NCBI GenBank assembly: GCA_963809215.1
Contig: CAWEIJ010000002.1
Coordinates: forward strand, 1,326,224 to 1,390,223
From: an uncultured Chloroflexia bacterium
GTDB taxonomy: Bacteria > Chloroflexota > Limnocylindria > Limnocylindrales > CSP1-4
Reading direction: 5' to 3'
Length of the DNA: 64,000 nt
The notes under the pieces are model-generated. The model saw nothing but the letters and a program-made list of their open reading frames with translations, did no database searches and was not told the origin of the DNA. The first letter of the stretch is position 1, and each line of letters begins with the position of its first letter. Shown here piece after piece: positions 576 to 19,938 of this stretch. The translations under genes and the position numbers were made by a program.

Positions 576-2330
576 TCATCGCCGCGCGCGAGCGGGTGCC
601 GCCCGCGAGGACCGGAACGCGGCAGCACGGGCGAGCAGGTCGCGCGCCGACGCTGCGGCGGCGGCGCCGGCCGCGAGGCCGCCGATCATCGCCGCGAGCT
701 CCTCCAGCCGCTCATCGTCGCTCAGCCGTCGCACCTCCGTCACGGTCCGGCCACCTCGCTCGATCTTCCGGATCCCGAAGTGCGCGTCTGCGTAGGCGGC
801 GATCTGGGGAAGGTGGGTCACGCACAGGACCTGGTGCCGGCGCCCGAGCAGCCAGAGCGTCTGCGCGACCGGGTCGGCGCTGCGGCCCCCGATCCCGGAG
901 TCGATCTCGTCGAAGACGAGCGTGGGGGTCGCGTCCGCGGCCGCGAGCACCTCCTCGATGGCGAGCGCGACCCGGGAGAGCTCGCCGCCGGAGGCGATCT
1001 TCGCGAGCGGCCGTGCGGGCTCGCCCGGGTTCGGCGCGATCAGGTAGACGACGACATCCGCGCCGGTCGCGTCGAACGCGACGGCGTCGCCACCGAGCTC
1101 GATGGCCGGTTCGTCCGGCCCTGCCGCTCGTCGCCCGACCGCGACCTGGACCCGCGTCCCCTGGAGGCCGAGATCCGCGACCGCGGTCTCGATGGCCGCC
1201 GCCAGCGCCGTGGCGGCAGCGGCGCGGCGAGAGGACAGGGCGGCGCAGACCACTGCCACGGCCGCCAGGAGCCGCTCCGCGGCGGCGCGGCGCCGATCGC
1301 GCTCGGTGCCGAGGTGGCGGAGCCGCTCGATGTCGGCGGCCGCTTCCTCCGCGCGCACGACGAGGTGGTCGACGTCGGCGCCGTACCGCCGCTCGAGGCT
1401 GTACAGGGCCGAAAGCCGAGCCTCCAGGGCGGCGAGCGCCGCGGGGTCGTGATCGAGGGTGTCCGCCAGGCGGCGCGCCTCGAATGCGACGTCCTCGAGC
1501 TCCGCGGCCGCGCCCGCGAGGCGCTCCACGAGCGGTCCGTACCGGGCATCGAGGCGGGCGAGGGCCGCGGCCTCGGCGGCGGCGCGCGATGCCTGCTCGC
1601 GGGCCCCCGGCGTCCCCTCCGACTCCACGTCGCCGCCGGCGAGGAGGCCGGCAAGCGCCGCGGACCCGCGCGCGATCGCCTCGCCGTGGCGGGCCGCGTC
1701 GAGCCGGGCGCGGATCGCGGCCGCCTCGCCCGGGACGGGTCGCGCCGTGGTGATCTCCTCGACCTCGTGCTCCAGGAGCGCGACCCTGCGTTCCAGCTCG
1801 AGCGGGTCGATCGCCAGCGACGCGAGCGCGGCCTCGTTGTCCCGCCAGGCCGCCACGGCGGCCGCGACGGCAGTCCGCTCCGCGGCATGGCCGCCGTACG
1901 CGTCGAGCAGCTCGCGCTGCCAGCGCTCGTCGAGGAGGCGGCCCTGGTCCCGCTGCCCGTGGATCTCGACGAGCGGCCCGGCCACGCCCGCAAGGCGCCC
2001 CGCGGTCACCGTCTCGTCGTCGACGCGGGCGACCGAGCGGCCGTTGGCTCCGACCTCGCGGACGCACAGGAGCGCTTCCGGGAGCCGGTCGAAGAGCGCC
2101 TCCACGCGGGCGACCTCCGCGCCATGCCGAACGAGGCCCGGATCCGCGCGCGCACCCAGGGCAAGGCCGAGCGCGTCGATGAGGAGGCTCTTGCCGGCCC
2201 CGGTCTCGCCGGTCAGCACGTTGAACCCGTCCGCGAACGTGATCCGGACGCGCTCGATCAGCGCGAGGTCGGCGACCGCCAGCTCGAGGAGACGCCCGGC
2301 GGCGAGCTCGGGGCCGCGCGGGTCGGCCAT
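576..2330 (-). CDS. recN: DNA repair protein RecN
   Basis: FNVLTGETGAGKS Walker A, VEIHGQ, IASGGELSRVALA signature, LVFDEIDSGIGG, QVLCVTHLPQIAA. ATG at 2330 sits just after the nadK stop. Confidence 0.96.
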   Translation of the reverse strand: MADPRGPELAAGRLLELAVADLALIERVRITFADGFNVLTGETGAGKSLLIDALGLALGARADPGLVRHGAEVARVEALFDRLPEALLCVREVGANGRSVARVDDETVTAGRLAGVAGPLVEIHGQRDQGRLLDERWQRELLDAYGGHAAERTAVAAAVAAWRDNEAALASLAIDPLELERRVALLEHEVEEITTARPVPGEAAAIRARLDAARHGEAIARGSAALAGLLAGGDVESEGTPGAREQASRAAAEAAALARLDARYGPLVERLAGAAAELEDVAFEARRLADTLDHDPAALAALEARLSALYSLERRYGADVDHLVVRAEEAAADIERLRHLGTERDRRRAAAERLLAAVAVVCAALSSRRAAAATALAAAIETAVADLGLQGTRVQVAVGRRAAGPDEPAIELGGDAVAFDATGADVVVYLIAPNPGEPARPLAKIASGGELSRVALAIEEVLAAADATPTLVFDEIDSGIGGRSADPVAQTLWLLGRRHQVLCVTHLPQIAAYADAHFGIRKIERGGRTVTEVRRLSDDERLEELAAMIGGLAAGAAAAASARDLLARAAAFRSSRAAPARARR

Positions 2331-2332
2331 CC

Positions 2333-3181
2333 TCAGGAGGGCAGCAGCTGCGCCTTCTGGCGCAGCAGGTCCCAGAACGGGAGCGCGCCGTCCGGCTCGA
2401 GGAAGCGCACGGGGCGCTCGAGCGCCGCGACCGTCACCACGTCGCCCACCGAGAGGCGGACGTCCTCGCGACCGTCGATCGAGACGAGCGCCTCGTGGGC
2501 CTCCGCGATTCGACAGCGAACCACGTGATCGGGGCTGACCACGACCGAGCGGATGGCCGACAGGTAGGCGGCGATCGGCGAGACGATCAGGTTGCGGCTC
2601 AGTGGATCGAGGATCGGGCCGCCCGCCGAGAACGAGTAGCCGGTGGAGCCGGTCGGGCTGGCCACGACGAGGCCGTCCGCGACGTACGTCGCCAGGTGGG
2701 ACGGCCCGATGTCCACCTCGAGCCGGACGACCCGGGCCAGCGACCCGCGCGCGACCACGACATCGTTGAGCGCGACGAACGTGCGCCGCGGCGCGCCACC
2801 GCCCGGCCCGTGGATCGCCCCTCGCAGGGCCATCCGCGGCTCGATCCTGAAGGCCCCGGTCCGGAGCTTCTCCAGGAGCGGCTCCAGCTCGTGCGCCTCG
2901 GCCTTGGACAGGAACCCGACCTTGCCGAGGTTGACGCCGACGAGCGGGACGTCGACCTCGGTGACGGCCCGCGCCGCATGGAGGAACGTGCCGTCCCCGC
3001 CGAGCACGACGAGCACCTGCGTCCCGGGCAGCGCGTGGACCAGGCGCTCGTGATCCGCGGCGGCGACCGTCCAGGACTCGAGCCCGCGCACGGCGCACCA
3101 GCCGCTGGCGCGGTTCGCGAGCTCGACCGCGTCCTCGTTCGTGGGGTTGTAGGCGAAGCCGATCCGCCGGATCTCGGTCAT
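2333..3181 (-). CDS. nadK: NAD(+) kinase
   Basis: VLGGDGTFL, GVNLGKVGFL, ALNDVVV, ADGLVVASPTGSTGYSFSAGGP. The ATG overlaps the corrected tlyA stop (ATGA). Confidence 0.95.
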   Translation of the reverse strand: MTEIRRIGFAYNPTNEDAVELANRASGWCAVRGLESWTVAAADHERLVHALPGTQVLVVLGGDGTFLHAARAVTEVDVPLVGVNLGKVGFLSKAEAHELEPLLEKLRTGAFRIEPRMALRGAIHGPGGGAPRRTFVALNDVVVARGSLARVVRLEVDIGPSHLATYVADGLVVASPTGSTGYSFSAGGPILDPLSRNLIVSPIAAYLSAIRSVVVSPDHVVRCRIAEAHEALVSIDGREDVRLSVGDVVTVAALERPVRFLEPDGALPFWDLLRQKAQLLPS

Positions 3182-4060
3182 GGGGCCGTGCAGGCCGCCA
3201 CGCGTGCCGCCAGGTCCAGCCGCGCGGAGCCCGCCGGCGCGGCCGGGGCGGCCGGGTCGGGCACGCCGAGGTGCGCGAAGAACTCGCGGTTGCCTGCCGG
3301 GCCGAGCAGCGGCGAGCGCGATCACGTCGATCGGGTCGAGACCGAGCCCGGCGGCCGTCCGCAGGACCCGCTCGAGGACCGAACGGTGGACGGCCGGGTC
3401 GCGGACGACCCCGCCGGGCACCTCTCCGCGGCCGGCCTCGAACTGCGGCTTGACGAGCGCGACGATGCGGCCGCCGGGCGCGACGCAGCGCGTCACCGGC
3501 CCCAGCACGAGCGCGAGCGAGATGAACGCGACATCGATGACCGCGAGCGAGACGGGCTCGCCGAGCACCGCCGGCTCCAGGTGCCGGGCATTCACGCGGT
3601 CGTGGACGATCACCCGGGGGTCGCCGGCGAGCGATGCCGCGAGCTGGCCGCGGCCGACGTCGACGGCATGGACGCGGGACGCGCCGCGCTGCAGGAGGGC
3701 GTCGGTGAAACCTCCCGTCGACGCCCCGGCGTCCAGGCAGACCAGGCCGGCCGGATCCACCCCGAAGGCGTCGAGCGCCCCGGCCAGCTTCTCGCCCCCG
3801 CGCGAGACGAAGGGCAGCGGGGTCGCCACCTCGAGGGCCAGCGAGCCGTCGACGAGGTCGCCCGGCTTCCGGTCGAAGCGGGCCGCGTCGCCCGCCCCGA
3901 CCCGGACGCGGCCGGCGAGGAGGAGCGCCTGCGCACGGCTCCGCGTCTCGGCGAGCCCGCGCTCGACGAGGAGCTGGTCCAGACGCACCCGCCCGGCGCG
4001 CGGCGGACGTGCCGATCCCCCTGGCGCTGTCGGGCGTTCCACGCGGCCGGCGGTGCTCAC
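3178..4060 (-). CDS. tlyA: TlyA family rRNA 2'-O-methyltransferase (one extra base near 3316, probably a sequencing error)
   Basis: RLDQLLVERGL S4 domain, FVSRGGEKL, LDAGASTGGFTD, VDVG, LVKPQFE. The conserved end SPLLGPAGNREFF is in a shifted frame and stops at TGA 3178. Confidence 0.9.
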
Positions 4061-8212: not shown

Positions 8213-8770
8213 CTACAGGCGGGTCTGGTACTCGCCGGTGCGCGTGTCGACCCGGATGGTGTCGCCCTCGGTCACGAAGAGCGGCACCGAGACGATGAGG
8301 CCCGACTCCGTGGTGGCGGGCTTGCGCGCACCGGTCGCCGTGTCGCCCGCGAAGCCCGGGTCCGTCTCGACGACGACGAGGTCGACCGTGATCGGCAGCT
8401 CCACGCCGAGCGTCTCGCCGTCGTAGCTGATCCGGTCGAGCGTCATCCCGTCCTTCATGTAGTTGACGGCGTCATCGAGCTGGTCCGCGTTGAGGTGGAA
8501 CTGCTCGTACGTCTCCATCTCCATGAAGTGGAAGGCGTCGCCGTCGCGGTACATGAACTGGATGGGGCGCCGGTCCAGCTGCGCCCGCGGCCACCTCTCA
8601 CCGGCCTGGAAGGACTTCTCGACGATCGAGCCCTTCTTCACGTTCTTGAGCTTGATCCGGACCTGGGCCGAGCCCCGGCCCATCTTGATGTGGTGGTAGT
8701 CGAGGATCTGCCAGAGGTCGCCGTCGAGCTCGATGACGACGCCCTTGTGCAGCTCGCCGGTGGAGATCAT
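8213..8770 (-). CDS. efp: Translation elongation factor P (Arg-type tip loop KMGRG)
   Basis: HIKMGRGSAQVRIKLKN, FMEMETYEQ, PGFAGDTATG, VPLFVTEGD, VDTRTGEY. Confidence 0.97.
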   Translation of the reverse strand: MISTGELHKGVVIELDGDLWQILDYHHIKMGRGSAQVRIKLKNVKKGSIVEKSFQAGERWPRAQLDRRPIQFMYRDGDAFHFMEMETYEQFHLNADQLDDAVNYMKDGMTLDRISYDGETLGVELPITVDLVVVETDPGFAGDTATGARKPATTESGLIVSVPLFVTEGDTIRVDTRTGEYQTRL

Positions 8771-8914: not shown

Positions 8915-10135
8915 TCAGCCGACGACGAGCACCTCGCGGGGGAAGCGGGTGAGGCGGTCGACGCGGCCAGCCGCCGCGTCGAAGTGGACGAGGTCCTCGA
9001 TCCGCACGCCCGTCCGCCCGTCCAGGTAGACGCCGGGCTCGACGGAGAAGACCGTGGGGCTCGGCAGCGGCGCCTCCGACGCCACGCGCGAGAGCGACGG
9101 GGCCTCGTGCGTGGCAAGGCCGATCCCGTGGCCGGTGCCGTGCCCGAAATGCTCCCCATGACCGGCCGCGGCGATGGTGTCGCGGGCCGCCGCGTCGGCG
9201 GCCCGCCCGTTCGGGACCGTCCCGGCCGCGAGCGATGCCTCCAGGTACGCGATCGCGGCCGCCTGCGCGCGGGCAACGAGCTCGTGGATCGCGAGATCCC
9301 GCGGCCGCGGCTCGCCGACGAAGAACGTCCGGGTCATGTCGCTCCGATAGCCGGCCACCTGCGCCCCGAAGTCGAACAGCAGGACCTGGCCGGCGCGGAC
9401 CCGCCGCGCTCCGGGCGATCCGTGGGGCAGCGCTGCCTGGGGGCCGGCGAGTGCCGCCACGTCGAACGCGAGCGCCTCGGCCCCGCCTTCCCGCATGAGC
9501 GTCTCGAGCCGCCATGCAAGCGCCGCCTCCGTCATGCCCGGCCGGATCTCCGGCAGGAGCGCCGCGAGCGCCCGGTCCGCGACCGCGCATGCCGCGGCGA
9601 TGCGCTCGACCTCGGCCGGCTCCTTGAGCGCTCGCTGCTCGGCGACCCACGGGCCGGCCGGCACGAGCTCCACGCCGGGCGCGGCCGTGGCCAGGTCGCC
9701 CCACAGGGCGTGACCGATGTCGGCCGCGGGCACCGCGACCCGGCGCGCGCCGATCGAGGCGCAGAGCTCGGCCCACCGTGCGGGCAGGTCGTACGTGACG
9801 GCGTCGACCCGCGCGTCGACTGCTTCGCGACGTGCCTGGAGCGTGTACCGGCTGTCGGCGAGCACGACGACCGCGTCCCCCGAGACGAGGAACCGCCCGG
9901 AGTGGCCCGCGACCTTCTCCTCGCCCTCGCCGAGCGCGACCCCGGTCAGGTAGCGGATCTCCTCGCGGCCGAGGCCGAAGTATGCATCGAGCCCCGCGGC
10001 GGCCAGGCGGGACCGGAGGCGGGCCAGCCGCGAGGGACGCGCGTCTCGATCCGCCTCGTCCCAGGCGCGCCGTCGACGAGCGCCCGGAGGCGAGGCGAAG
10101 TCGGCAGGGTCCGGCAGGCGCCCGGCCCTCGTCAC
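8915..10135 (-). CDS. Xaa-Pro aminopeptidase (M24B)
   Basis: Creatinase-like N-domain, then ALPHG, FDFGA...YRSDMTRT, FGHGTGHGIGLATHEAP, FSVEPGVY, GVRIEDLV. GTG overlaps the mltG stop. Classic neighbour of efp. Confidence 0.92.
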   Translation of the reverse strand: MTRAGRLPDPADFASPPGARRRRAWDEADRDARPSRLARLRSRLAAAGLDAYFGLGREEIRYLTGVALGEGEEKVAGHSGRFLVSGDAVVVLADSRYTLQARREAVDARVDAVTYDLPARWAELCASIGARRVAVPAADIGHALWGDLATAAPGVELVPAGPWVAEQRALKEPAEVERIAAACAVADRALAALLPEIRPGMTEAALAWRLETLMREGGAEALAFDVAALAGPQAALPHGSPGARRVRAGQVLLFDFGAQVAGYRSDMTRTFFVGEPRPRDLAIHELVARAQAAAIAYLEASLAAGTVPNGRAADAAARDTIAAAGHGEHFGHGTGHGIGLATHEAPSLSRVASEAPLPSPTVFSVEPGVYLDGRTGVRIEDLVHFDAAAGRVDRLTRFPREVLVVG

Positions 10136-11523
10136 GTGCCGTACTTCGCGATGGCCTGGAGGTGCTCGGCGTACGTCTTCGAGAAGATCGTCGTTCCGTC
10201 CTTCTTGGCCAGGAAGAAGAGGTAGCCCCCGCGCGTGTCCGGCGTGAGCGCCGCGTCGATGGACGCCACCGTCGGGGTGCAGATCGGCCCCGGCGGGAGC
10301 CCCTTCGACGTGTACGTGTTGTAGCCGGCGAGGGCTGCCGGGAGCTTCGCCGGGAGCGCTCCCTGGAACGGCGCCCAGAAGTTGTAGTCGACCCACTTCG
10401 GCATCGAAAGGTCGGCCAGCGCGAGCGAGTCGTTCACGTAGAACACGGTCGGATCCGACCCGAGGAAGCCCGCGGCCTCGGTGCGCGGGTTCAGGCGGTT
10501 CTGGAGGACGCCGGCGATCCTGGCTCGCTCCGAGTCGAGCCGCGCCTCCTGCTCGACGATCGAGGCCATCGTCAGGACCTGGGTCCAGGTGAGACCGCGC
10601 GCGGCAGCGACCTTCATTCGTTCCGGTCCCACCTCGGCAAGGAAGCGGTCCAGCATCATGCGGACCAGCTGCTCAGGCGTGGCATCGGGGAGGATCGAGT
10701 AATCGCCGGCCGCAAGGTAACCCTCGAGCGTCCCGCCCCTTGGGATCTGCAGCCAGGGGTAATCCTGGAGGAGCGTCGCGGGCGGCGTGCGCACGACGTC
10801 GAGGAACGCCGAGGCGGACATCGTGAGGGTGGCGAGCCCGTGGTCGGCGGCCTTCGCCTCGATGAGCGCCGCGATCTGCTCCAGTCGAAGGCCGGTCCGG
10901 ATCGACATCACGATGTGGGGGTCCGGGGCGGGCGGCGTCAGGAGCGTCACGGACAGCTGGTCGGGGGTCATGGTCTGGCGGACCACGAAGTCCCCGGCCT
11001 GGTAGCTCGTGCTCACGTTCCGCTCGAGCGAGATGAGCACGAAGGCCCGCGCATCGCGCAGCACGCCCGCCTGCACGAGCCGCGTCGCGATCGTCGCGGC
11101 CGTGTCGCCGGGCGCCACCACGAAGGGGACGTCCGCCGCGTTCGAGCCGGCAGGGTCCGTCAGGGCGCTTCCCAGGTCCTCGCGGACCATGTCGGCCACG
11201 AAGCCGATCCCGAGCGCGCTCGGGTTGTCGCCCGCCAGGTTCACGACGACGCCGCGGACGATGGGCCGGCCGAGCGTCGCCAGGAGCGCGAGCACGAGCC
11301 CGGCCGCAACGACGAGGAACACGATGAACCGAAGCGCCCCGGATCCGCGCCGGCGGGTGCCGCGGCGGGCGAGCTCGGAGGCCGAGACCGTGCCGGAACG
11401 GGGCGGGGCCTCGCCGGTCGCCCCACGCGGCGTGGCTTCGCGGCCGAGGCGATGCGCCATCGCGGTGCTCTCGGCTGCTGCGGCCCGATCGTCTCGGGGA
11501 CTGCCGCCGCCACGGATCGTCAT
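10132..11523 (-). CDS. mltG: Endolytic transglycosylase MltG
   Basis: N-terminal TM helix, LEGYL, ASIVEQEA catalytic Glu, LGSDPTVFY, YNTYTSKGLPPGPICTP, YLFF. Confidence 0.93.
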   Translation of the reverse strand: MTIRGGGSPRDDRAAAAESTAMAHRLGREATPRGATGEAPPRSGTVSASELARRGTRRRGSGALRFIVFLVVAAGLVLALLATLGRPIVRGVVVNLAGDNPSALGIGFVADMVREDLGSALTDPAGSNAADVPFVVAPGDTAATIATRLVQAGVLRDARAFVLISLERNVSTSYQAGDFVVRQTMTPDQLSVTLLTPPAPDPHIVMSIRTGLRLEQIAALIEAKAADHGLATLTMSASAFLDVVRTPPATLLQDYPWLQIPRGGTLEGYLAAGDYSILPDATPEQLVRMMLDRFLAEVGPERMKVAAARGLTWTQVLTMASIVEQEARLDSERARIAGVLQNRLNPRTEAAGFLGSDPTVFYVNDSLALADLSMPKWVDYNFWAPFQGALPAKLPAALAGYNTYTSKGLPPGPICTPTVASIDAALTPDTRGGYLFFLAKKDGTTIFSKTYAEHLQAIAKYGT

Positions 11524-12137
11524 CGATTGTCCTCGTCGGCGCCGGGCCCGGTCCCGGAAGGCCAGGACAGGCCGCGTACGTGGCCTTCGGCGTCATCGGA
11601 AGGCGCCCCAAGCGTACCCGACTCCGTCGGGACGCCGCGTGCGCGGCCTCCCCGGTCGCGGTCGGGCAGGATCCGTTCGCCCGGACGCCCCATCCCGCGG
11701 GCCACGAGCTCGTCCTCGAGGATCACGCCCGCTGCCGCGCGATCGATCCGGGCGCGGTTCGCCGCACGCCGCGCCGGCCCCGGCGGTCCACCCGACGGGC
11801 CGCGCTTCGCCCGCCCGACGCGACCTTCGGCCACGTGGCTCGAGAGGCGCTCGTCGCGCAGGGTGACGGGCAGGCCGGTGGCGCTCGCCATCGCGACCGC
11901 CCATTGCCGGGCGACGGCCGCGGCGGGCCCCTCGGCGCCGGACATGTCGAGGGGAAGCCCCACCACGAGCTCTGCGATCCCGTTCGCGGCCGCCACCCGA
12001 CCGAGCGCGTCGGCGTCGGCCTCGACCGAACGGCCGCGACCCAGGGTGGCGAGCGGCCGTGCCCGGAGCGCGTCGTCGTCGGCGATCGCCAGCCCGATCC
12101 GTCGCGTCCCGAGGTCGACCCCGAGGAGCCGGCTCAC
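11520..12137 (-). CDS. ruvX: Holliday junction resolvase-like / pre-16S maturation nuclease RuvX (YqgF)
   Basis: LLGVDLGTRRIGLA, LVVGLP, DERLSS, IDRAAAGVILE. Confidence 0.92.
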   Translation of the reverse strand: MSRLLGVDLGTRRIGLAIADDDALRARPLATLGRGRSVEADADALGRVAAANGIAELVVGLPLDMSGAEGPAAAVARQWAVAMASATGLPVTLRDERLSSHVAEGRVGRAKRGPSGGPPGPARRAANRARIDRAAAGVILEDELVARGMGRPGERILPDRDRGGRARGVPTESGTLGAPSDDAEGHVRGLSWPSGTGPGADEDNR

Positions 12138-14065
12138 GGGGCCGTCGATGCCGACGGAGCAGGCGATGCCACCGATCCGGACGGGGCCGGCGAGACGGCA
12201 GGTGCCAGCGACGCCGGCGGGCCGGCCGACTCGGAGGTCGCCGCCGGGGCGGACGGGCCCGGAGAGGACGGCAAGGCCGGGGCCGGCGAGGGAGTTGGGG
12301 CCGGCGAGGCGGTCGGGGCCGGCGACATGGACGGCGGCGACGACGGGGACGAGCCTGTCAGGCCCTCGATCCGCAGGTCCACCCGCGCGTCGAAGGTCGG
12401 GATCGTCGATGCCCAGCCCGGCCAGAGGGTGACCGTGACGTCTCCGAAGGCACCGAGGATTGCCTGCGCCTCCACTGCCGACCGACCCTCGACCTGCCTC
12501 CGGAGCGTGGCCTCATCGATGCGCGGCGCTGCGTCAGCGCGGGCCGTGACGCCGAAGCGGACGCGCTGCCCGTCGACGGTGCCGGGCCCGACCGTGACGG
12601 CAGCCGAGCCCGCCACGAGGTCCTGGTCAGACGGGACGGCGGCCGCGGCCCGGGCCTGGCCGAGCGCGAGGATCGGCGCCGGGTCGACGGCCACGACGGT
12701 CCCCGTCGCCGTCACCCCGAGGTCGAACTGGGCAACCTCCTGGTCGACGAGCGTTGCCGGGTCGACCGTCGCCGTGGCCGTCCCGCGCGTCGCGGTCTCC
12801 GGGTAGGCCGTCGTCCCCGCGATCAGCCCGACCGGAGCCGCCGCGGCCGTGACGAGCTGCGCGTCGAGCTGCTTCCCGAGCGCCGTGAGCGCCCCTGTGA
12901 CGTCCTTCTGGGTGACCTTTGGGAACTCCGTCCGCTTCCCGCCACTGGTGGGAGCAGGGTTCGTCACGGAGATGACGACGTTGTTGTACTGCCCGGGAAT
13001 GACCGTGATGGTGCCGGCGGCGACATTCGAGCCGGTCCCCGTCTTCGCCGCGGTGACCGTCACCGTTCGGTCCTGGCAGGCGATCCGGGGCGGGTTGAGG
13101 ATCGCGACGGGGAGGAAGACCGCCTCGTCCGTCCCGAAGGCGATCCCAGCAGCGGTCCGCACGGGCGTGCCGCCCGGGATGGTGTAGGACCGGGTCGGGT
13201 CGCAGTTCGTCCAGCGCACGCTGCCGACCGCGGGCGCCTCGTCGACCCGCTTGCCCGACGCCTTGAACGTGCCGCTCGCCGTCAGCGGGAGGTCCAGCCG
13301 GATCGCCGGGACCACCGCCGCCCCGCTGTCCGTGGCGGTCACGTCGGGATCGGCCGTGACGACGAAGCTCACCGGGGGGATGGGCACGGAGTGGACGCTG
13401 AGGACGATCGACGCGCTGGGCAGGAGGAGGTACGCAGCCACGCCCCCGGCGACCCCCACGAATGCCAGGACCAGGAGCCCGACGAGGGCCGCGTTCCGGC
13501 GGCGGTGACTCAGTCGGGGCGCAGGGCCGGTGCCGCGGTCGGCGCCGAGGCCGGTCGTCGGTCCCGGCCGGGCCGACCCGGGATGGGGCGCCGATGGGGG
13601 GAAGCCTGTCCCGGCCGCGGACTCGAGCGCCCCCTGCGGGATGGCGGCCGCTTGCCCGGTCGAAGGCGCCCCGCCCGCCGGTCTCCCGGCGGCAGGTGGT
13701 CCCGCGCCCGCGGGTCGTCCCGCGCCAGGCCCGGAGGCCCCGCGCCCGGCGGGCGGCTCGGGCGCCCGAATGGCGGCTCCGGCCTCCGCCGGGAGCGGAA
13801 GCGACGCTTCGTACTCCATCGTCGACGCGTAGACCGGCAGGCCCGCGGTCGCGGCCAGGGCGCGGGCCGCCGCGTCGGGCGCGACGATCGAGAGCCGGCG
13901 GCTCCGTTGCTGCGCCTCGCGCGCGAGCAGCCGGAAGTTGATTCGGCTCGTCGCGATCCGCGACCCGGCCGGGAGGACGAGGACGACGACGAGGTCCGGC
14001 GTCCCGCGAATCCGTGCGGCCGCCGACGTGATCTCGTCGTCGATGTCGAGATAGAAGATGGCCAT
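12134..14065 (-). CDS. Single-pass membrane protein with an exported baseplate J/gp47-like domain
   Basis: Small N-terminal alpha/beta domain, Pro/Gly/Ala linker, HRRRN followed by a TM helix (AALVGLLVLAFVGVAGGVAAYLLL), then TIPGGTPVRT...F.TDEAV...VTAAKTGTGSNVAAGTIT...VTNPAPTSGG (baseplate-J-like pattern) and a Pro/Ser/Ala tail. Confidence 0.75.
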   Translation of the reverse strand: MAIFYLDIDDEITSAAARIRGTPDLVVVLVLPAGSRIATSRINFRLLAREAQQRSRRLSIVAPDAAARALAATAGLPVYASTMEYEASLPLPAEAGAAIRAPEPPAGRGASGPGAGRPAGAGPPAAGRPAGGAPSTGQAAAIPQGALESAAGTGFPPSAPHPGSARPGPTTGLGADRGTGPAPRLSHRRRNAALVGLLVLAFVGVAGGVAAYLLLPSASIVLSVHSVPIPPVSFVVTADPDVTATDSGAAVVPAIRLDLPLTASGTFKASGKRVDEAPAVGSVRWTNCDPTRSYTIPGGTPVRTAAGIAFGTDEAVFLPVAILNPPRIACQDRTVTVTAAKTGTGSNVAAGTITVIPGQYNNVVISVTNPAPTSGGKRTEFPKVTQKDVTGALTALGKQLDAQLVTAAAAPVGLIAGTTAYPETATRGTATATVDPATLVDQEVAQFDLGVTATGTVVAVDPAPILALGQARAAAAVPSDQDLVAGSAAVTVGPGTVDGQRVRFGVTARADAAPRIDEATLRRQVEGRSAVEAQAILGAFGDVTVTLWPGWASTIPTFDARVDLRIEGLTGSSPSSPPSMSPAPTASPAPTPSPAPALPSSPGPSAPAATSESAGPPASLAPAVSPAPSGSVASPAPSASTAP

Positions 14066-14075
14066 CGAGGCGACG

Positions 14076-15339
14076 CTACAGCTTCATCGCGCGAAGGACG
14101 CGCCGGAGCGCGGCGTCGAGGGGGTCCTGCTCCGCCTGGAGCTCGATCGCCTGGAAGGCAAGCCCCAGCGGCGTGACGTCCTGCTGGTCCACGAGCAGCT
14201 GCGTGGCGTCCGTGATCGACTCGACCATCGCGGGCTGCATGACCGACGACCTCCGGCGGCCGGCTGAACGGCAGGCGCTTCCAGAAGCGCGGGTCGCGCA
14301 GGGCGGTCGCCGTCTCGGGCAGCCGCGAGCCGCCCCCGCACAGGTAGATGCGCCCCGGCAGCAGGTCGCCCCCGGCAAGCTCGTCGAGGACCAGCTCCAC
14401 GCCGGCCGCCCAGACGGCCACGTCGTCGCCCACGATCTCGGCGATCGCGTCGTGCTCCGGCATCGCGAGCCCACGCGCGTAGTCGACCTTGAGCGCCTCG
14501 GCGCGCGGGAACGGGAGGTCCAGGCGGTCTGCCAGCGACTTCGTGAAGGCCCGGCCGGCGAGCGCGAACATCCGCGTCCCCTCGATGCCGCCCGCGCGGA
14601 CCAGCGCGACATCGGTGGTGCCGCCGCCGACGTCGACGAAGAGGGCGCCCGCCTGCTGCACCTGCTCCGAGGCGAGCACCCTGGCGACGGCGTACGGCTC
14701 GGCCACGATCTCGAGCAGCTCGAGGTCGAGCTGCGCCGCGACGCTCTCGAGGGCGCCAAGGTGGACGAGCGGAGCGAACGCGTTGAAGATCCCGATCCTG
14801 ACGTGGCGGCCCTGGAAGCCCACCGGGTTCGTGACCGCGTAGCCGTCGATGCTGGCCGACGTGACCGCGGCGTGGACCAGGCGCACGTCCACGTTGGGCA
14901 GGCCGGTCTCCCACGTGATCGCCCGCTCCGCCTCGATGAGCGCGGCACGCTGCACCCCGTCGATGAGCTTCTGGAGCTCTGCGTCCGTGATCGCGACGTC
15001 CGGCTTGCGGCGCTCCTGGCTGTGCGACGTCGTGAACCCCTTGACCAGCTCGCCGGCGATCCCGATGACGACCTGGGTGGGGCGGAAGCCTGCCATCTCC
15101 TCGGCTTCCTGGAGCGCGACGGCACAGTTGTCGACGACCGCGGCGATGTCTGCCACCGTCCCCGACTGCATGTGGGCGAGACCCTGGCGCTTTCGACCCA
15201 CGCCGCGGACGGTCCCGCGGCCCTGGGCGTCGATCTCGAAGACGAGCGCCTTCGCGAACTCGGTCCCGACATCGAGCGCGGTGCAGGCGGCAAGCTGGGC
15301 GCCGCCGTCGCGCTGCCAGAAGCGGCGCAGGAACGCCAT
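14076..15339 (-). CDS. FtsA-like actin-fold ATPase (one extra base near 14244, probably a sequencing error)
   Basis: ALDVGTEFAK (phosphate 1), FtsA-like 1C insert (SIDGYAVTNPVGFQG), VAEPYA, VDVGGGTTD (phosphate 2), LCGGGSRL (adenosine). The C-terminus MQPAMV...LDAALRRVLRAMKL* is in a shifted frame and ends 10 nt before the next gene. Confidence 0.85.
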
Positions 15340-15347
15340 GGCCGGGC

Positions 15348-18110
15348 CTAGCCGCCGCCGAGCGCGGCCAGAGCCGCGGCGATCGCCTCCAGCGCGGCCG
15401 GCAATCCCTCGCGTCGCGAGCCGCGGCCCTGGGCCATCTCCGGCCGCCCGCCGCCCTTCCCGTCGATGTGCGCCATCGCGGCGCGAACCAGGTCGCCGGC
15501 CGCCACGCCGCGAGCCACCAGGTCGTCGGACACGCCAACGAAGAGCTGCGGCTCGTCCGCGTCGAGCCCCACCGCGATGACGCCCGAGGGGAGGAGCCCG
15601 CGGGTCTCCTTCGCGGCCGCCTTGAGCTCCTCGATCGACGCCCATGGAGCCGCGCGGGAGACGAGGCGGATGCCGGGCGCGACCTCCCGCGCCCCGGCCG
15701 CGAGCTCGGCAGGCTTCGGGACGCCGCTTCCGGCACCGGCCCGCAGCCGCCGCTTCGCCTCCCGGAGCTCCGCTTCCAGCGCCGCGATCCGCTCGGCCAC
15801 GGCCTCGACGGTCTGGGCGCCGACGCGTTCGGCGACGCTCGCGAGGAGCTCGGAGCGGGCACGCAGGTAGTCGTCGGCGGCCTCGCCGGTGAGCGCCTCG
15901 ATCCGGCGCATCCCCGAGCCGATGCTGCGGTCCGCGGTGATCACGAAGCTGCCCACCTCGCCGGACGCGCGGCAATGCGTCCCGCCGCAGAGCTCGAAGC
16001 TGTAGTCCGCGACGCGCACGGTGCGGACCGTCTCGCCGTATTTCTCGTCGAAGAACGCGTCCGCGCCAGCGCCGATCGCGTCGGCCATCGGGAGGGTCTT
16101 CACGGTCACCGGCCGATCCTCGCGGACGACACGGCGAACCTCGTCCTCGATCCGGCGCTGCTCGTCGTCGGTCAGGGCGCGGTCGAGGGGGTAGTCGAAA
16201 CGAAGGTAGTCCGGCGAGACGAGCGAGCCGGCCTGCCGCGCGCCGGGGCCGGCGACGTTGCGCAGCGCACGATGGAGCAGGTGGGTGCCCGTGTGGTTGC
16301 GCATCGTCCGGGCCCGCCGCTCGGGATCGACCACGGCGCTCACGGTCTCGCCGACGCGGAGGCGCCCGTGGAGCCTGCCGCGGTGGACCACGAGCGCGCC
16401 GGCCGGCCGGAACGTCTCCTCGACGGCGAAGAGCGACGAGCCGCCGCCCTCCTCGCGGAGCTCGCCGGTGTCGCCGACCTGCCCGCCGCTCTCGGCGTAG
16501 AAAGGCGTCCGATCCAGGATCACCTCCGCCTCGCCCGAACCGGTGAGCTCGTCGTAGGCCGTGCCGTCGCGCAGGATCGAGAGGACACGGCCCTCCGACG
16601 TCGTCGCCTCGTACCCGACAAACGTCGTCGCGCCGGCGCGGCGCAGGATCTCCTCGTACTGCGCCGTCAGCTGCGCATGGCGCGCCAGCTCGGCCTTGCG
16701 GCCGCCCCGGCTGCGTTCCCGCTGCTCCGCGAGCGCGACCTCGAACCCGGGCCGGTCCACGCGCACGCCGCGCTCCGCGGCCAGCTCGATCGTCAGGTCG
16801 ATCGGGAAGCCGTACGTGTCGTGGAGCTTGAAGGCGACCCGGCCGGCGAGGATCGGGGCCTCGGCGGGGACGTCCTCGGGCCGGCGCCCGATGACGCGCT
16901 CGGCGTCGGTCAGGGGACTGAGCGCCGCGTCGAGCTGGGCCGTTCCTGCGTCGAGCGTCCGGGCGAACTGGACCTCCTCGCGCGCGATCGCGGCGAGGAT
17001 CCGCTCGCGTTCGTCACGGAGGAGCGGATATGCCTCGCCCATCACCTCGATGACCGTGGCCGCCGTCTCGACGAGGAACGGCTCGCGCCGCCCGAGCAGC
17101 CGGCCGTGTCGGACCGCGCGCCGGATGATCCGGCGCAGGACGTAGCCACGGCCCTCGTTCGCCGGGAGGACACCGTCGGCGATGAGGAAGGTCATCGCCC
17201 GGCTGTGGTCCGCGATCACCTGGTAGCTGAAGCGCTCGGCCTCGAAGGCCTCGGGATCGTGGCCCATCAGCACGCGCATGCGCGCGTGGATCGGCGTGAA
17301 GACGTCCGTGTCGAAGTTGCTGGGGACCTGCTGGACCACGCTCGCAAGCCGCTCCAGGCTCATGCCCGTGTCGACGCTCGTGAACGGGAGCGGCACGCGA
17401 CCGCCCGGTCGCTGCTCGAACTCCATGAACACGAGATTCCAGATCTCGAGCCAGCGAGGGCAGTTCTCGGAGTGATCCGGGATGCAGCCAGGTCCCTCGG
17501 AGAGATAGGCGCCACGGTCGAAGTGAATCTCGCTGCACGGACCGCAGGGACCCGTGTCGGCCATCCGCCAGAAGTTGTTGTCGTCACCCGAGTCGACGTT
17601 TCCCCAGCGCGCCATGCGCTCGGGCGGAAGCCCGATCTCGTCACGCCAGATCGCCCAGGCAGCGTCGTCGTCGGTATACGTGGTTGCCGCCAGGCGCTCG
17701 CCGGGGATGCCCATCTCCTCGGTCAGGAACTCCCACGCCCAGTGGATCGCCTCGCGCTTGAAATAGTCGCCGAAGCTCCAGTTGCCGAGCATCTCGAAGA
17801 ACGTGTTGTGGCGGGTGGTCCGGCCGACTTCCTCGAAGTCGTTGTGCTTGCCGGCGACACGCAGCACGCGCTGATAGTCCACCGCCCGGACATAGCTGCG
17901 CCTCTCGGCGCCGGTGAAGACCTCCTTGAACTGGACCATGCCCGAGTTCGTGAACAGGAGGGTCTGGTCTGCCGCCGGGATGAGACTCGCGCTGGGCACG
18001 ACCGTGTGGCCGCGCGCGGCAAAGAAGTCGAGGAACCGGTGGCGAATCTCCGCGGCAGAGAGCGAGACGATCCGCGGGTCGTTGCCAGGCGGGACGGGCA
18101 GGGTGGGCAT
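15348..18110 (-). CDS. alaS: Alanine--tRNA ligase
   Basis: TLLFTNSGMVQFK, FFEMLGNWSFGDYFK, GPCGPCSEI, EIWNLVFM, TPFYAESGGQVGD, editing NHTGTHLL and ELCGGTH, GKGGGRPEMAQG. Confidence 0.98.
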   Translation of the reverse strand: MPTLPVPPGNDPRIVSLSAAEIRHRFLDFFAARGHTVVPSASLIPAADQTLLFTNSGMVQFKEVFTGAERRSYVRAVDYQRVLRVAGKHNDFEEVGRTTRHNTFFEMLGNWSFGDYFKREAIHWAWEFLTEEMGIPGERLAATTYTDDDAAWAIWRDEIGLPPERMARWGNVDSGDDNNFWRMADTGPCGPCSEIHFDRGAYLSEGPGCIPDHSENCPRWLEIWNLVFMEFEQRPGGRVPLPFTSVDTGMSLERLASVVQQVPSNFDTDVFTPIHARMRVLMGHDPEAFEAERFSYQVIADHSRAMTFLIADGVLPANEGRGYVLRRIIRRAVRHGRLLGRREPFLVETAATVIEVMGEAYPLLRDERERILAAIAREEVQFARTLDAGTAQLDAALSPLTDAERVIGRRPEDVPAEAPILAGRVAFKLHDTYGFPIDLTIELAAERGVRVDRPGFEVALAEQRERSRGGRKAELARHAQLTAQYEEILRRAGATTFVGYEATTSEGRVLSILRDGTAYDELTGSGEAEVILDRTPFYAESGGQVGDTGELREEGGGSSLFAVEETFRPAGALVVHRGRLHGRLRVGETVSAVVDPERRARTMRNHTGTHLLHRALRNVAGPGARQAGSLVSPDYLRFDYPLDRALTDDEQRRIEDEVRRVVREDRPVTVKTLPMADAIGAGADAFFDEKYGETVRTVRVADYSFELCGGTHCRASGEVGSFVITADRSIGSGMRRIEALTGEAADDYLRARSELLASVAERVGAQTVEAVAERIAALEAELREAKRRLRAGAGSGVPKPAELAAGAREVAPGIRLVSRAAPWASIEELKAAAKETRGLLPSGVIAVGLDADEPQLFVGVSDDLVARGVAAGDLVRAAMAHIDGKGGGRPEMAQGRGSRREGLPAALEAIAAALAALGGG

Positions 18111-18201
18111 CGAGCCTAATGGTAGCGAACGGAGCGGGGCGATCCCGACCCGTGCCGTGGCCCCCCGGCCGTCGGGGGCGCGCTGACCCTCCCGGTCCGC
18201 G

Positions 18202-18483
18202 CTACAGCCTGCCCTCCCGTTCGGCACTCCGCCCTGCCCGGTCGCCCCCGGTCCGAGGCGGCCCCGCAGGGCGGCGGGGCGTCGGCGGGCCAGCGCCTCG
18301 CCGAGAAGCCGACGCCGACGCGCCGCCCACGCGGCGCCGGATCCGGCGCCAGACCGTGGATCCTGCGATGACCGCGCCGACGAATGCCCCGAGCGTGGCG
18401 CCCCGGACGAAGACCGCCAGCGGGTCGTCGTCGCGCCGGGGCGCGCCGGGCGGCGTGCGGGCGACGGCCGACCGGCGGCTCAT
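18202..18483 (-). CDS. Small membrane-anchored hypothetical protein
   Basis: LAVFVRGATLGAFVGAVIAGSTVW hydrophobic helix. The ATG overlaps the upstream stop (ATGA). Confidence 0.55.
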   Translation of the reverse strand: MSRRSAVARTPPGAPRRDDDPLAVFVRGATLGAFVGAVIAGSTVWRRIRRRVGGASASASRRGAGPPTPRRPAGPPRTGGDRAGRSAEREGRL

Positions 18484-18795: not shown

Positions 18796-19938
18796 CTACC
18801 CGTCGTCGCGCACGATGCGCCCGCCGCCCACCACGAGGTCAGGATCGTCGACGGCGTAGAGGACACACGCCTGCCCCGGCGCAGCGGCCCAGACCGGGAC
18901 CGCCGTCTCCACGGCCCAGCGCCGATCGCGGGCCGACGGCGCCGACCCGGTGACGGCCACGGGCCGGACGTCGGCGAGGACGGCCTCGGCGCGATGGCGG
19001 ACCTGCGCCCGGGCGGCGAACGACGCGCCCGCGGCGGTTGGCGGGCTCCCGGCGACGAACGTGACCTCGGCAAGCGTGAAACGTCGCGTCTCGAGATCGG
19101 CGCGGCGCGCGAGCACGATCGTGTTCGCGCCGGGGTCCACCCGGCTCACGTAGCGCGGCTCGCCGAGCGCGATGCCCAGCCCGCGGCGCTGCCCCACGGT
19201 GAAGCCGGCGGCGCCCGCGTGCGCGCCCACGACCCGGCCGTCGCGCGCGTCGATCGCCGGGCCCTCGACCGGCAGCCAGCCGGTCCGCGCCCGCAGGGCG
19301 TCGCGGGGATCGCCCGTCGGCACGAAGCAGATCTCCATGCTCTCGGGCTTCTCCGCCGTCGCGAGCCCGCGCGCTCGCGCGAGCTCGCGGACCTCGGCCT
19401 TCGTCAGCGCTCCCAGCGGGAACCACGCGTGGGCCAGCTGGTCCTGGCGCAGCCCGTACAGGAAGTAGGCCTGGTCCTTGGCCCGGTCGGCACCCCGCCG
19501 CAGCCGATGGATCGGCCTGCCGTCGGCGTCCGTGACGGTCTCGCGGCGGGCGTAGTGTCCGGTCGCGACGGCGTCGCAGCCGTACAGCCGCCGGGCCCGC
19601 CCGAGCAGCGCCCCGAACTTGACGGTGCTGTTGCAGTCCACGCACGGGCTGGGCGTCTCGCCGCCGAGGTACGCGGCAAGGAACGGGCGGATCACGCCGG
19701 CCTCGAACTCGCGCTCAAGGTTGAGGACGTAGAACGGGACGTCGAGCTGCGCCGCCACCCGTCGGGCGTCCTCGGCCGCGTCCGCGGAGCAACAGCTCTT
19801 CTTGATCTCCGAGTAGGCGTCCGCGCCCTCGTGGACCCGCATCCAGACGCCGATCACGTCGTGCCCGGCCTCGGCCAGCAGCGCCGCTGCGACCGAGCTG
19901 TCGACCCCGCCGGACATCGCGACGAGCACGCGTGCCAT
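18796..19938 (-). CDS. mnmA: tRNA-specific 2-thiouridylase MnmA
   Basis: [65 protein letters not shown]. Confidence 0.96.

Follow-up and report, generated by a model that had tools for sequence, protein, structure and literature searches.

Couplings of actin-like proteins to the membrane are known from FtsA-FtsN/FtsZ, MreB-RodZ and PilM-PilN. Canonical FtsA holds the C-terminal tail of FtsZ on its subdomain 2B and the bitopic protein FtsN on subdomain 1C (PDB 4a2a, 7q6i), PilM takes up a short N-terminal peptide of PilN in its 1A/1C groove, and in MreB-RodZ and MreB-MreC an actin-like protein is linked via a bitopic protein to wall enzymes. Here we analysed a stretch of 64,000 nucleotides (hereafter the window) of contig CAWEIJ010000002.1 from an uncultured Chloroflexia bacterium (assembly GCA_963809215.1), in which two genes of the minus strand, here called F (14076..15339) and B (12134..14065), are placed between alaS and ruvX-mltG. 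F codes for an FtsA-like actin-fold protein of 420 amino acids (aa) when intact, the frame being broken in the assembly, and B, as judged by its open reading frame (ORF), its homologues and a model with a pLDDT (predicted local distance difference test) of 80.8, codes for a bitopic membrane protein of 643 aa. The reading that we favour, and consider somewhat probable, is that F and B together make up a conserved module of two proteins which spans the cytoplasmic membrane and couples an actin-like scaffold to the envelope. No description of the F-B pair was found in full-text literature searches or by term look-ups in the Patescibacteria papers PMC10633639, PMC11665869 and PMC12206443, and public annotation offers family names only ('baseplate J/gp47 family protein', 'PilM' and 'FtsA').

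Profile analysis of F revealed a match to the Pfam family FtsA (PF14450, E 1.1e-11, 45.6 bits, cut-off 31.8), while on TIGR01174, the equivalog profile of canonical FtsA, F scored 103.8 bits and thus stayed below the cut-off of 175.85; the profile alignment of F spans FtsA residues 3-262. The F model (pLDDT 93.1, predicted TM score 0.91) was nearest in the fold search to FtsA structures with a 1C domain (7q6i_D, E 4e-33, TMt 0.86, 394 columns), and PilM structures were the second-best fold matches (TMt 0.68-0.77; 2ych 0.77, 5eou 0.72). Model and fold matches together indicate an actin fold in which subdomain 1C replaces 1B, in agreement with the FtsA-like 1C insert which an initial annotation had read from the sequence of F.

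A canonical ftsA gene (410 aa), directly followed by ftsZ, was located at C2:~924k, approximately 400 kb from F. Its product shares 24% identity with F, and F itself, placed between alaS and B, is not adjacent to ftsZ; F is thus not the only FtsA of this genome; that it might be so was one of the findings which the initial annotation had named as refuting its proposal. The genome also carries two mreB genes, one of which adjoins mreC. In all of five Patescibacteria genomes (5/5) TIGR01174 gave 307-407 bits for the canonical FtsA as against 102-111 bits for the F paralogue. A hidden Markov model derived from 42 F-family members inverted the ranking, F scoring 574-613 and canonical FtsA 98-128 bits. 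These 42 members were full-length rows picked by hand among 150 listed matches. The reciprocal profile scores, on which this split rests, show F to be a distinct and, as judged from sequence, ancient paralogue that coexists with canonical FtsA.

A search of 1.84 billion representative sequences with F returned 5185 matches at E<=0.001 and 342 clusters at E<=1e-30. Among the matches listed, the full-length relatives are about 400-430 aa long and 30-50% identical to F, the Patescibacteria members being about 50% identical, and the closest relatives outside the class are Candidatus Berkelbacteria records which carry the NCBI name 'pilus assembly protein PilM'. Alignment of the 42 F-family sequences revealed six invariant columns, D23, G25, D236, G238, G335 and G336; we take these residues to belong to the actin-fold motifs known as phosphate-1, phosphate-2 and adenosine. 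Since these nucleotide-site motifs are invariant, F probably binds nucleotide. Sixteen longer matches were considered as natural fusions of F and rejected: nearly all were singletons, 73-91% identical to F and continuing into domains of AlaS, B or RuvX, and we attribute them to read-through in assemblies whose frames are broken. P0301, a database protein of 791 aa and a single sequence, unites Ser/Thr kinase domains (PF00069, PF07714) with an F-like domain of 48% identity to F.

In its model B is bitopic: the N-domain is folded and lies in the cytoplasm, and the outer domain is large and carries a predicted barrel of the baseplate J type. The N-domain (aa 1-90, 13796..14065, minus strand as for all features of B; pLDDT 93-97) is an alpha/beta, STAS-like domain and the predicted docking site of F. 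Its superpositions on many STAS entries were consistent with each other, with Z 6.2-7.9 over 82-93 residues, a range which the guide of the tool calls 'middling', and a Pfam STAS match was not found for aa 1-90 at E<=0.1. Residues 93-187 form a linker of low pLDDT, apparently disordered, which is followed by an RRR motif and by one transmembrane helix (aa 191-213, 13427..13495) recognised in both model and sequence. Since the arginines precede the helix, the positive-inside rule suggests that the N-terminus of B lies in the cytoplasm, in agreement with the single-pass, N-in protein described earlier. The extracytoplasmic domain (aa 217-567, about 350 aa, 12365..13417) was modelled with a pLDDT mostly above 90. 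The C-terminal tail (12134-12364), about 75 aa of low complexity rich in Pro, Ser and Ala, differs in length between relatives and may serve as a wall-spanning spacer.

Some B homologues are named 'baseplate J/gp47 family protein' in public records, and the initial annotation had seen such a pattern in the exported part of B. Residues 277-380 indeed match Pfam Baseplate_J (PF04865, E 1.4e-5, 24.9 bits, cut-off 21.1), the match covering only profile positions 21-113 of 255, and Foldseek placed the outer domain with J-type baseplate proteins of phages and contractile injection systems (CIS), with 8kea_d as the best match (E 1.5e-8). The Foldseek alignments with baseplate proteins, themselves 347-386 aa long, extend over about 345 columns at a root-mean-square deviation (rmsd) of 30-46 A and a TM score of 0.13-0.25; rigid superposition (VIA), on the other hand, was confined to residues 272-382 (12920..13252), where it gave Z 11-14 and an rmsd of 1.7-3.4 A over 91-106 residues. 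The baseplate matches of this barrel come from cyanophage A-1(L), phiCD508, Mu, phi812 and diffocin, the solved wedge proteins that superpose on it being 8kea, 9gb2, 9ki1, 9euf and 8v3w (rmsd 2.0-3.4 A), while Z was 8-9 for AFP, T4 gp6 and TssF. Because rigid superposition and Pfam agree, the barrel is common to B and the baseplate proteins.

Compared with the wedge proteins of the baseplate J/gp6/gp47/TssF type, B therefore shares a barrel of about 100 residues (Z 11-14, rmsd 2-3.4 A, 18-29% identity; PF04865 above its cut-off) and differs in being membrane-anchored, in having a cytoplasmic domain, in being encoded in a housekeeping operon that has no tail genes, and in the remainder of the outer domain, which fails rigid superposition. 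The same barrel is found in GlxA of Streptomyces lividans (4unm, 5lqi), which fits that of B equally well (Z 13.5-14.2, rmsd 1.7-2.0 A, 96-98 residues). GlxA is a copper oxidase of cellular origin that is anchored to the membrane and acts in the envelope; it has a propeller domain, which B lacks. Among the 42 B-family members analysed, PF04865 was matched by 30 and the GlxA barrel family PF21110 by 13, and no other baseplate family of Pfam was matched by any of them. Of the earlier proposal of a domesticated phage baseplate fold, the likeness is borne out for a barrel of about 110 aa, the only part that superposes rigidly; a phage origin does not follow from it, GlxA having the same barrel.

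Modelling of F together with B 1-215, along the lines suggested in the initial annotation, placed the B N-domain on subdomain 2B of F, with ipSAE values of 0.67, 0.69 and 0.71 as against 0.00 for the best of three controls. The ipSAE mark is reached by 58 of 80 solved complexes and by 2 of 110 mismatched pairs, a calibration which is only rough here, custom alignments having been used. Over the F-B runs the pLDDT of the partner was at least 61 and the contact agreement at least 23%. The confident contacts in the model join F 258-272 and F 305-317, which are helices of subdomain 2B, with B 9-20, 36-50 and 66-70; minor contacts were predicted for F 58-59, 97 and 143-147. The model thus supports binding of F to the cytoplasmic N-domain of B.

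When compared with FtsA, F has in common the actin fold with 1C instead of 1B, the best structural and profile matches, the conserved nucleotide-site residues and, as predicted by the model, a place next to the membrane with a bitopic partner seated on subdomain 2B. It differs in its score below the TIGR01174 cut-off, in its low identity to the FtsA of its own genome and in lying away from ftsZ; its predicted ligand would moreover be a folded membrane-protein domain of 90 aa and not a peptide tail. The general logic of MreB-RodZ and MreB-MreC is analogous to that proposed for the pair, although F is of the FtsA type and not of the MreB type and the genome has mreB genes and an mreC of its own.

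Within the genus, B was present in all 24 other genomes searched and the order alaS-F-B-ruvX-mltG was kept in 11/11 of the loci returned. Across the nine genus loci with a whole F, identities were 88-99% for F, 51-80% for B, 62-84% for RuvX and 49-84% for MltG. The survey was then extended to 301 Chloroflexota genomes with single-sequence queries (the B outer domain, and F at E<=1e-25), in which the B outer domain was found in 114 and F in 93 genomes; the F tally takes in two genomes flagged as unpublished (G309, G212). Where both queries matched, 56/61 genomes have F immediately ahead of B in the same orientation, and in the other five the two are on different contigs, so that in none (0/61) are they apart on one contig. 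A match to F only was obtained in 32 genomes. Twelve Chloroflexota loci, picked by hand (five F-only, four B-only and three with both matches), were read; in all of the five F-only loci a divergent B, beyond the reach of the query, follows F.

A search of Patescibacteria with a single F protein from Berkelbacteria yielded 80 loci. The B N-domain is encoded downstream of F in every one of these (80/80), and 77 carry the B outer domain too, the three exceptions ending at contig edges; most have alaS upstream and ruvX-mltG downstream. The F and B genes are therefore adjacent and co-oriented, inside the alaS-ruvX-mltG block, across Chloroflexota and Patescibacteria, and the co-occurrence of the pair in other genomes, for which the initial annotation had proposed a neighbourhood survey, was confirmed in both phyla. 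In seven of the Patescibacteria loci (L085, L088, L091, L092, L094, L097 and L136) one to three small genes are inserted between F and B; their products are a coiled-coil protein, a membrane protein of about 210 aa that has one transmembrane pass and 'STFQF' at its end, and, in two of the loci, a third protein of about 200 aa.

On the basis of these results the following arrangement may be proposed. F would dock through the helices of its subdomain 2B on the STAS-like N-domain of B, and since the predicted docking uses the face on which FtsA takes the FtsZ tail, B, instead of FtsZ, would hold F at the membrane. The pair would in this way connect a cytoplasmic scaffold, actin-like and ATP-dependent, with an outer domain active in the envelope, and, because co-transcription with mltG is presumed, wall growth or division would be the likely setting. 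A more detailed version, to which we give little credence as a whole, sees in F a second actin-like scaffold, independent of FtsZ, which the STAS-like domain of B would bring to the membrane. Via the baseplate-type outer domain of B, which may oligomerise in the manner of baseplate wedges, this scaffold would organise the termination or insertion of peptidoglycan strands with MltG. The system would go back to the ancestor of that part of the bacterial tree which comprises Chloroflexota, Dormibacterota and Patescibacteria, and for the last of these, with their tiny genomes, it might be essential.

Several observations weigh against a membrane-spanning F-B module, or against parts of it. A basic/hydrophobic C-terminal helix is conserved in most of the 42 F members and may itself be a membrane anchor; in the model it comprises residues 406-419 (pLDDT about 83) and has no long linker ahead of it. 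The complex score is the model's own confidence and not a measurement, and F is frameshifted in the present assembly. B was matched without an F match in 53/301 Chloroflexota genomes, and in 4/4 B-only loci that were read B precedes ruvX-mltG without F, three of the four keeping the B N-domain. Since such B-ruvX-mltG loci exist, B does not depend on F everywhere: the F-B partnership is not obligate and B is independent of F in some Chloroflexota families. With the same queries neither gene was found in many Chloroflexota families that bear MltG (e.g. f13, 0/18, and f16, 0/12). MltG, whose tally takes in G184, G078, G212 and G266, occurs in 264/301 Chloroflexota genomes, far above F or B, and the profile comparison is uninformative beyond containment. 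Finally, the gene order before ruvX-mltG is the sole ground on which a wall or division role of F-B can be called likely. The cytoskeleton-to-wall module of the initial annotation accordingly divides in two: its envelope link is plausible in the light of the paralogue, the linkage, the barrel and the complex model, and none of the contrary findings that had been named was encountered, while its wall part, in which the pair may position MltG, goes no further than gene order. In one Chloroflexota family (L052, G245:C1:1810000-1821000) B was found without F and without the STAS-like N-domain, still between alaS and ruvX-mltG.

The same data were weighed under other explanations. Regulation deserves the most attention among these, although we regard it as unlikely: the module would be a regulatory or surface-protein device in which the STAS-like domain and the actin-fold ATPase control or scaffold the outer domain, for example in sortase-dependent anchoring or transmembrane signalling. 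The resemblance of the B N-domain to STAS partner-switching and transporter domains (Z 6-8), the retention of B without F in some families and the kinase-F fusion P0301, one sequence, are consistent with such a device, but the Z values are only middling by the guide of the tool and mltG is a fixed neighbour. A sortase was neither adjacent in the window nor noted in 23 Chloroflexota and 80 Patescibacteria loci, which is a weak argument as only alaS, F, B, ruvX and mltG were mapped. It is less probable still that the pair is the assembly platform of a pilus or secretion system, with F as a PilM and B as a membrane partner similar to PilN/PilO or GspL. The NCBI names of the closest Patescibacteria relatives (among the matches listed) and the rank of PilM as second-best fold (2ych, 5eou) would fit, as would the logic of a PilM-like ATPase with a bitopic partner, since in PilM-PilN too an FtsA-like ATPase has as its partner a single-pass membrane protein whose gene comes next downstream. 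FtsA structures and profiles nevertheless fit F better than those of PilM: F scored 23.3 bits on TIGR01175 pilM, where the cut-off is 133, and on PilM_2 (PF11104, cut-off 27) it scored 12 bits. The neighbours are alaS, ruvX and mltG, with no pilus gene, including pilN and pilO, among the neighbours identified in the window and the mapped loci; B, at about 640 aa and with its large outer domain, is unlike PilN; and the predicted contact, a folded domain on 2B, is not the PilM-PilN mode. The pilus loci of Saccharibacteria TM7x, as described in PMC12206443, moreover have their own pilM1 and pilM2 together with pilN and pilO. Least probable of all, to the point that we give it almost no weight, is that B is what remains of a prophage or contractile injection system and is paired with F incidentally. 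The Pfam Baseplate_J match and the phage baseplate folds of B could be cited for it, and a true CIS-type baseplate J exists elsewhere in the genome (C2:1882k, PF04865 E 3.3e-15, about 540 kb from the window). However, B is flanked by alaS, F, ruvX and mltG and not by tail, sheath or tube genes, and the same housekeeping block holds it across two phyla; the rigid match is limited to the barrel, the transmembrane helix and cytoplasmic domain are absent from baseplate proteins, and its family matches PF04865 (30/42) to the exclusion of other baseplate families.

The remaining explanation, that F is a true pseudogene in this organism and the module is decaying, arises from a frame break which the initial annotation had overlooked. 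The frame that starts with the ATG at 15339 has no stop at 14076 and continues to 13510, past the start of B, while the last 55 codons of F sit in a different frame from residues 1-365. Alignment of the DNA with four relatives indicated a single extra base at about 14245 (14241..14250, minus strand), GTCGTCGGTC being found here versus GTCGT-GGTC in the relatives. In 9/11 genus loci a single frame runs from residues 1-365 straight into the 55-residue tail; of the other two, one ends at a contig edge and one is split over four frames. One of the two mreB genes is likewise split between frames (C2:2917585-2921058; locus ORFs 1059.. and 1342-2058), and so is the CIS- or phage-type baseplate J gene (C2:1880631-1884182; ORFs 692-3220 and 1270-2241, minus strand). 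Multi-piece matches were also obtained in several sister assemblies. Since genes other than F are broken and the sister matches are in pieces, we think, without proof, that the extra base is an indel error of the assembly. Although one extra base does disrupt the frame 55 codons ahead of the stop, the protein on each side of the break is 96-99% identical to the nearest relative, hence no decay is visible, and we consider a pseudogene improbable, somewhat more so than a regulatory device and less so than a pilus platform.

Should F and B indeed constitute a module that couples an actin-like scaffold to the envelope, it would be an unstudied cytoskeletal module in a large part of the bacterial tree, including the Patescibacteria, whose reduced genomes retain few non-essential genes. 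It would combine an FtsA paralogue, better conserved than the housekeeping genes around it, with a membrane protein re-using a barrel known mainly from phage baseplates. To FtsA-FtsN/FtsZ, MreB-RodZ and PilM-PilN it would add a fourth way of coupling an actin-like protein to the membrane, and it would offer a testable handle on envelope building in poorly understood lineages; since Saccharibacteria are now genetically tractable, as reported in PMC10633639, the module could be tested directly.

The five genes alaS, F, B, ruvX and mltG are co-oriented on the minus strand of the window, whose G+C content is about 74%. The upstream gene of the block, alaS (alanyl-tRNA synthetase, 15348..18227), was recognised as an ORF whose true start may be internal; AlaS is encoded upstream of F in relatives as well. 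Downstream of B follow ruvX, coding for a YqgF-type nuclease (11520..12137; ORF, Pfam RuvX E 4.4e-27), and mltG, coding for a YceG-family lytic transglycosylase (10132..11523; ORF, Pfam YceG E 3.4e-64). The tight packing of the pair noted earlier was found again: 8 nt separate the alaS stop from the F start (15339) and 10 nt the F stop (14076-14078) from the B start (14065), while the B stop and the ruvX start overlap by 4 nt (12134-12137), as do ruvX and mltG. The genome-wide profile search found no second PF14450 or PF04865 match within the window, no other scan for pilus or phage genes having been made there, and the matches of the genome beyond the locus are at C2:924k, C2:2919k, C3:292k and C2:1882k. 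Farther out, at 8213-8770 and 18796-19938, the flanks look housekeeping when their translations are read by eye, with an elongation factor P and an MnmA-like tRNA 2-thiouridylase.

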